NCBI GenBank assembly: GCA_043809065.1
Contig: JAZDEE010000102.1
Coordinates: 1 to 27,288 of the forward strand
Direction of reading: 5' to 3'
DNA length: 27,288 bases
Source: Candidatus Omnitrophota bacterium
Lineage (GTDB): Bacteria; Omnitrophota; Gorgyraeia; JAFGHF01; JAZDEE01
Notes under the pieces: generated by a model
What the model was told of the DNA's origin: nothing
The model's database searches: none
The model's input: the letters and a program-made list of their open reading frames with translations, nothing else
Made by a program: the position numbers and the translations under genes
Shown here: positions 6,567 through 7,343 of the stretch, piece by piece
Position numbering within the stretch: position 1 is the first letter of the stretch
Layout: the number at the start of each line of letters is the position of its first letter

Positions 6567-7343
6567 TTATTGGGAACGCTGCATTTTACGAAGAATATCG
6601 GGAGAAACTTCCTTAATAACAGTCTCCTTCGTGCAGGCAGGACCTCTTACCTCAATCCCTGATCCTTTTTCAATAATCTCTCCTATCCTGTATCCAAGAA
6701 AGCATGGATGATCAATGACCAGATTCCGCTGCTCATTCGCCTTCCATTCCGAGCTTAATTTCGCCTTGATCACTTTCTCAATTTCTCCCCCCGGCATAAC
6801 TTCGATCTTATCGTCTTTCTCATTAAACAATTCATATTCCAGCATGCTGACCTGCAGCAAGGCTAAAACCACAAACTTATGTGATAACTGCAATGCCGGC
6901 CGTTGGTTCTTGATTGCCGAAAGAAGCTCACTCGTAAGCCGGTCCTCGGAGATTATATACTGGTATGCCCCGCCTAATTTCAACCTAAACTTCTTCACAT
7001 GGAGGGCGCTAAGTTCACCATGAACGTATCCGATAATATCAGGCGTTACCCCCAGTGAGAATTGCCGTTCGCCTGAAATCGAAGGCAGTTGAACACCGCC
7101 TTTAAGTGAATTCATCAGTTTCTCGTTCTGTTCCGGAGCAAAGACATCCCTTATAAGTACAACCGGGTTGGACCTTAAGTCTGCTGTCTTATAGACATCA
7201 CCGACATTCTGGATTTCCGGGATAGGGATGATCGGAGCGAATCGGTTTTCTTGCAATAAGCGAGTGAGGGGATCCGTCGCGCATCCGGACACAAACACCA
7301 CGAAAACCAGTAAAAAGATATTCTTCCAGGACAAAATCCTCAT
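6567..7343 (-). CDS. Lipoprotein with predicted bacterial-gasdermin-like fold
   Basis: AAGGAG 6 nt before ATG 7343; hydrophobic signal ending in lipobox VSG-C. The mature chain CATDPLTRLLQENRFAPIIP...VGDVY...KFVVLALLQVSMLEYEL...AKLSSEW...FLGYRIGEI follows the segment order of bacterial gasdermins as I recall them. The lipoprotein call is firmer than the fold call. Confidence 0.62.
   Translation of the reverse strand: MRILSWKNIFLLVFVVFVSGCATDPLTRLLQENRFAPIIPIPEIQNVGDVYKTADLRSNPVVLIRDVFAPEQNEKLMNSLKGGVQLPSISGERQFSLGVTPDIIGYVHGELSALHVKKFRLKLGGAYQYIISEDRLTSELLSAIKNQRPALQLSHKFVVLALLQVSMLEYELFNEKDDKIEVMPGGEIEKVIKAKLSSEWKANEQRNLVIDHPCFLGYRIGEIIEKGSGIEVRGPACTKETVIKEVSPDILRKMQRSQ

Follow-up and report, generated by a model that had tools for sequence, protein, structure and literature searches.

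The gene and its family

The 27,288 nt of contig JAZDEE010000102.1 (assembly GCA_043809065.1), referred to here as the window, come from a Candidatus Omnitrophota bacterium, whose phylum is made up of uncultured bacteria of very small size. The minus strand of the window carries a gene for a protein, P0001, that has a gasdermin fold, a predicted lipoprotein signal at its N-terminus and a short C-terminal tail. A first-pass annotation had proposed that this tail may be an inhibitory peptide that is tethered by a disulfide and removed by proteolysis. The features of the gene and its surroundings on which the analysis relies are as follows.

6567–7346, minus strand: gene for the predicted gasdermin-fold lipoprotein P0001, 259 amino acids, GTG start
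7281–7346, minus strand: predicted signal peptide, residues 1–21, and lipobox Cys22 (7281–7283); Cys column kept in 45/49 sequences, lgt and lspA in the genome
6666–6704, minus strand: last long β-strand of the core, residues 215–227, with C215 as its first residue (6702–6704); DSSP on the model
6627–6665, minus strand: flexible linker loop, residues 228–240, containing R234 (6645–6647), G235 (6642–6644) and C238 (6633–6635); coil, with a predicted local distance difference test score (pLDDT) of 71 for the block 231–240
6609–6626, minus strand: docked β-strand of the tail, residues 241–246 (ETVIKE); DSSP strand, block pLDDT 97
6573–6602, minus strand: C-terminal helix, residues 249–258, with the conserved ..LR+ motif (L252, R253); pLDDT 94–97
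6484–6515, minus strand: terminator-like hairpin with a U-run after it, some 50 nt past the stop codon; found by folding

The numbering of the first-pass annotation was verified by script. The cysteines of P0001 lie at residue 22 (after VSG in the lipobox), residue 215 (HPCFLGY) and residue 238 (GPACTKE), and C215 and C238 are indeed the only ones outside the lipobox. The segment GSGIEVR begins at residue 228, and exactly 25 residues follow the R234–G235 bond, the tail length that had been given. The interval assigned to the latch (6567–6701) covers residues 216–259 and the stop codon, and the C215 codon lies one codon beyond it.

An exhaustive HMMER search (E of 0.001 or better) gave 59 representative clusters, all of them derived from metagenomes or metagenome-assembled genomes (MAGs) and, where named, from Omnitrophota, Elusimicrobia or Verrucomicrobiales. 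Forty-nine homologs were aligned for the conservation counts given below, and 45 of these bear a lipobox. With the 49 homologs as input, AlphaFold2 gave a confident model of P0001 (pLDDT 91.1, predicted template modelling score 0.86). The top matches of this model in a Foldseek search of the PDB were gasdermins only, led by the bacterial gasdermin (bGSDM) of Bradyrhizobium (7n50, E 7e-8) and followed by those of Runella and Vitiosangium. The PADLOC bGSDM profile (PDLC02986) matched 26 of the 49 family members, with a best E of 5.2e-11, and close relatives of P0001 gave weak collinear matches to a bGSDM profile (E 3e-5 to 0.03). P0001 itself had no match in Pfam, NCBIfam or PADLOC, PDLC02986 included, and a profile search of PDB sequences with it returned noise only; at the level of sequence, its homology to bGSDM would hold by transitivity, through other members of the family. 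We conclude that the family is a divergent branch of the bGSDMs and that the first-pass description of the protein as gasdermin-like is sound. The family is rare and patchy, being found in 5 of 401 genomes of the phylum, and P0001 had no tblastn match in plasmid and phage collections.

The N-terminus of P0001 satisfies the lipobox pattern [LVI][ASTVI][GAS]C. The cysteine column is occupied in 45 of the 49 sequences, the other four having a gap there, and the lipobox Cys22 aligns with the start of bGSDM chains. The source genome encodes both lgt and lspA. P0001 is thus a predicted lipoprotein, in which Cys22 would be diacylglyceryl-modified and the protein held outside the cytoplasm.

Architecture of the C-terminal tail

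In the model of P0001 the core strand (residues 215–227) is followed by a coil of 13 residues (228–240), a strand (241–246) and a helix (249–258). The block 231–240 was modelled with lower confidence (pLDDT 71) than the strand and helix, which scored 94–97. A second AlphaFold2 model was made for P0012, a family member that is 37% identical to P0001 and has Arg at column 215 and no cysteine in its tail. This model showed the same architecture, in which a linker of 28 residues (pLDDT below 65) comes before a docked strand (261–265) and a helix at 91–95. Both predicted structures contain a short docked C-terminal peptide behind a flexible loop, and that of P0001 has the fold of the gasdermin N-terminal pore-forming domain.

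Conservation follows the same division. Past the core, the tails of the 49 members are between 2 and 183 amino acids long, while about half of the members keep a C-terminal motif that fits the pattern [VIL]x[ED][VI]P..[ED]LR+. A strict regular expression for the motif caught 18 of 49 members, of which 3–4 are likely to be chance matches, and missed both P0001 and its nearest relative; in the 18 members caught, the linker preceding the motif ranges from 14 to 166 amino acids. R253 is invariant across the 10 closest sequences. In the homolog of genome G399 (L011:3288–4235) the tail region is interrupted by a run of N, and the C-terminus is unreadable.

This arrangement resembles that of characterized bGSDMs, in which the cleavage site lies within a loop of about 12 amino acids directly before the C-terminal peptide, the loop is disordered in one crystal, and the peptide pairs with the core as a short β-strand, its truncation being toxic (10.1101/2021.06.07.447441). 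The first-pass reading of the segment as an inhibitory tail agrees with the models of P0001 and P0012 in this respect. That reading was to be given up if the tail proved to be part of the core sheet. The β-strand at 241–246 does not count as such a case, because bGSDM peptides also form a short β-strand with the core.

The position of any cut is a separate matter. The first-pass annotation had placed it at the R234–G235 bond. A basic residue at the R234 position is kept in the four closest sequences only, and the Runella bGSDM is cut after Leu247 by its associated CHAT protease (10.1101/2021.06.07.447441). The assignment of the cut to R234–G235 is a guess, and the comparison with relatives does not bear it out.

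On balance, and by analogy with the bacterial proteins, we lean slightly towards the view that residues 228–259 serve as an autoinhibitory module of the bGSDM type at the C-terminus of an exported, lipid-anchored protein of gasdermin fold. The flexible, fast-evolving linker (228–240) would tether a conserved plug, made of the strand 241–246 and the helix 249–258, that is docked on the core. As in bacterial gasdermins, proteolysis at some point in the linker, which is probably protease-sensitive, would free the plug, and the core might then oligomerize and insert into the membrane to which the protein is anchored. Autoinhibition, proteolytic release and pore formation are in this sense predicted functions.

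Protease neighbours and gene context

The window gene follows def. Downstream, at 5667–6251 on the minus strand, lies a gene for an exported-looking 194-residue DUF6515 protein (E 1.8e-10), which is a separate transcription unit. The hairpin between the two genes (6484–6515) has an 11-bp stem and a folding energy of −15.5 kcal/mol (z −4.0; none of 200 shuffled sequences folded as well). It was missed by a consensus terminator scan, its loop being 10 nt, and was found by folding. Since this terminator-like structure follows the gene, no downstream gene would be co-transcribed with it.

The context of the nearest relative is different. This homolog, in an Omnitrophota MAG (locus L001), has 82% protein identity with P0001, and 134 nt downstream of it, on the same strand, starts a gene for a 1158-residue TPR-CHAT protein (full-length CHAT match, E 1.2e-56). 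At the N-terminus of the TPR-CHAT protein a hydrophobic segment comes after a basic stretch, which suggests a protein that is exported, or anchored so as to face the periplasm. The two genes belong to a same-strand cassette of three (L001:4838–10402), in which a membrane-anchored DUF900 α/β hydrolase lies upstream of the gasdermin-like lipoprotein and the TPR-CHAT protein.

Comparison of the two loci showed 84% nucleotide identity between window positions 6555–7355 and L001 positions 5989–6803. The similarity is limited to the gene, with no synteny in the flanks, and therefore suggests that it moved as a single unit, by gene-sized horizontal transfer between genomes of different taxonomic families. 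The caspase-like TPR-CHAT protein directly downstream in L001 is a candidate for the activating protease, and the window copy would then be an orphan. A fuller form of the proposal, an extracytoplasmic gasdermin–caspase module in which the exported TPR-CHAT protein cuts the plug and the window copy is an orphan effector that moved as a single gene, strikes us as possible but rather unlikely.

Several observations weigh against an inhibitory, protease-released tail. No protease gene adjoins the window copy, its neighbours being def and the DUF6515 gene, and neither CHAT nor Peptidase_C14 was found in the source genome, which is 68% complete. Apart from L001, a protease neighbour is absent from the readable contexts (seven of about eight). 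A separate CHAT protein of about 700–750 amino acids is present in every genome of family f14 searched, comprising 4 of 4 sampled and three that carry the gasdermin-like gene, and the single adjacency in L001 could be coincidental. There are also structural points. Alignments to gasdermins in pore form and to gasdermins consisting of the N-domain alone stop at model residues 246–251 (as judged from the alignment ranges), so that the strand 241–246 may belong to the core and the helix alone be the plug. The tails of some members are only 2–15 amino acids long; these may be cut-off gene calls or genuinely tail-less forms.

The co-occurrence of CHAT proteins with the gasdermin-like gene, seen in all three other Omnitrophota genomes that carry it, was considered as evidence and rejected as confounded by lineage (4 of 4 f14 genomes). 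Because every sampled f14 genome has a CHAT protein, only the adjacent 1158-residue copy in L001 counts.

The same contexts bear on a different explanation, in which the tail has a permanent, structural place, either in a gasdermin that acts independently of cleavage or in an envelope lipoprotein that forms no pores and has some other role. Cleavage-independent gasdermins are known, and the scarcity of adjoining proteases and the position of the window gene, between def and its own terminator, would be expected of such a protein. However, where a hypervariable, disordered linker separates a conserved C-terminal motif from the core, the motif has the hallmarks of an element that is tethered and can be released, and the nearest relative has a CHAT neighbour. 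The patchy distribution of the family and one setting that resembles a defence island also favour a function in conflict over a housekeeping one. We regard the permanent-element explanation as a substantial minority possibility, and retain the autoinhibitory module as the preferred interpretation of the tail.

The defence-island-like stretch surrounds a metagenomic homolog with 49% identity (L016:4553–11325). Its neighbours are an Abi_C protein, a PDC-S01 AAA_14/DUF4143 ATPase (E 2e-134), a PIN protein and a 638-residue LOG-like protein. In an Undivivens-like clade, each copy of the gasdermin-like gene is preceded, at a distance of 22 nt, by the end of a gene for a protein of 149–174 amino acids (L002:5443–5967; L003:5518–5967; L012:1552–2076; L013:7443–7967). 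Several hydrophobic segments are visible by eye in this small protein, which had no Pfam match in the L002 and L003 copies and is a possible conserved partner in the membrane.

The cysteine pair and comparison with known systems

According to the first-pass annotation, C215 and C238 would form a disulfide in an oxidizing exported setting and so tether the tail, and the protein would become active only once R234–G235 is cut and the disulfide reduced. The presence of both cysteines, the predicted export of the protein and the existence in Trichoplax of a disulfide-latched, reduction-activated gasdermin (PMC12547243) are in keeping with this proposal, but the alignment is not. Only one of the 49 sequences, P0001, has a cysteine at column 238. 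At column 215, Arg stands in 25 of 49 sequences, Cys in 5 and Ser in 5, Arg being the ancestral residue. Co-conservation of the two residues, which had been named as a check, failed outright: P0001 alone among the 49 has a cysteine at column 215 together with one in the tail. In the 82%-identical relative the codon at position 238 is CGC (Arg), as against TGC in the window, and lies beside a 15-nt indel. Because of this difference, C238 is best read as a recent Arg-to-Cys transition of a single base in an indel-prone linker.

The occurrence of two cysteines is no more than is expected by chance. Cysteine makes up 0.31% of the mature chains of the family, at which frequency 6–9% of tails of 25–32 amino acids, or about 3–5 of 49, would contain at least one; seven of the 49 tails, as delimited in the alignment, do. 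The mature chain lacks cysteine in 27 of the 45 members with a lipobox, has an odd number in 12 and has two in six, so that odd counts outnumber even ones. This pattern shows no sign of disulfide design in the family. Most likely, C215 and C238 have no designed role and their joint presence in P0001 is due to chance.

The setting and the geometry add to the difficulty. The protein is predicted to be exported, but no DsbA, DsbB, VKOR or Thioredoxin_4 was found in the source genome (68% complete), and among 97 genomes of the class that are at least 90% complete DsbB occurs in none and VKOR in six, belonging to two other families only. An oxidizing export compartment is therefore a weak premise. 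In the secondary structure of the model, the strand that C215 opens is 13 residues long, and C238 follows the last of these by 11 positions; a bond between the two would force the loop to run back along the strand in a nearly fully extended form. P0012, which lacks cysteine at both sites, docks its tail equally well in its model. We consider a redox-plus-protease double latch very improbable, as it fails the test of conservation.

Still less probable, to the point of being barely tenable, is an intermolecular disulfide through C238 or C215 that would hold the protein as an inactive dimer in the manner of the Trichoplax protein. C238 does lie in an exposed loop, and the precedent exists. However, the lack of conservation and the failure to find disulfide-forming machinery apply here equally, and the cysteines of the Trichoplax protein sit in the lipid-binding β1–β2 loop and not in a tail. 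That protein, TrichoGSDM of Trichoplax adhaerens (PDB 8JYV/8JYW), is the only known precedent for a redox latch; it is inactivated by disulfides and activated by reduction. Its disulfides are intermolecular, are made in the β1–β2 loop and require no cleavage for activation (PMC12547243). The cysteine pair of P0001, in contrast, is unconserved, and C238 occurs in this sequence alone, within a variable linker.

Action of a gasdermin fold outside the cell has been proposed for the pyroptolysins, gasdermin–CDC chimeras described in a preprint (bioRxiv 10.64898/2026.10.05.756811), which was the only report found in a literature search for exported or lipoprotein bacterial gasdermins. Pyroptolysins are soluble toxins and carry a C-terminal β-sandwich similar to CDC domain 4. 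P0001, unlike these, is a predicted lipoprotein that ends 32 residues past its core, and its model has no extra domain.

The closest comparison is with the bGSDMs of Runella, Bradyrhizobium and Vitiosangium (PDB 7N52, 7N50 and 7N51; preprint by Johnson et al., 10.1101/2021.06.07.447441), which have a C-terminal inhibitory peptide and are activated by CHAT or C14 proteases. The window protein shares their fold and the arrangement of their tail, but is missed by the bGSDM hidden Markov model. The described bGSDMs are cytoplasmic, lack a signal peptide and have a palmitoylated N-terminal cysteine in a buried thioester, whereas proteins of the present family carry a Sec signal peptide together with a lipobox (45 of 49 members). 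An adjacent gene for a caspase-like, CHAT or other protease, a feature of the bGSDMs, accompanies the L001 copy only among the readable contexts, the window copy having no such partner. If the fuller proposal of a gasdermin–caspase module is correct, L001 would encode a gasdermin–protease pair that acts outside the cytoplasm. An exported, lipid-anchored branch with a bGSDM-style tail would extend the gasdermin–protease logic to the cell envelope.
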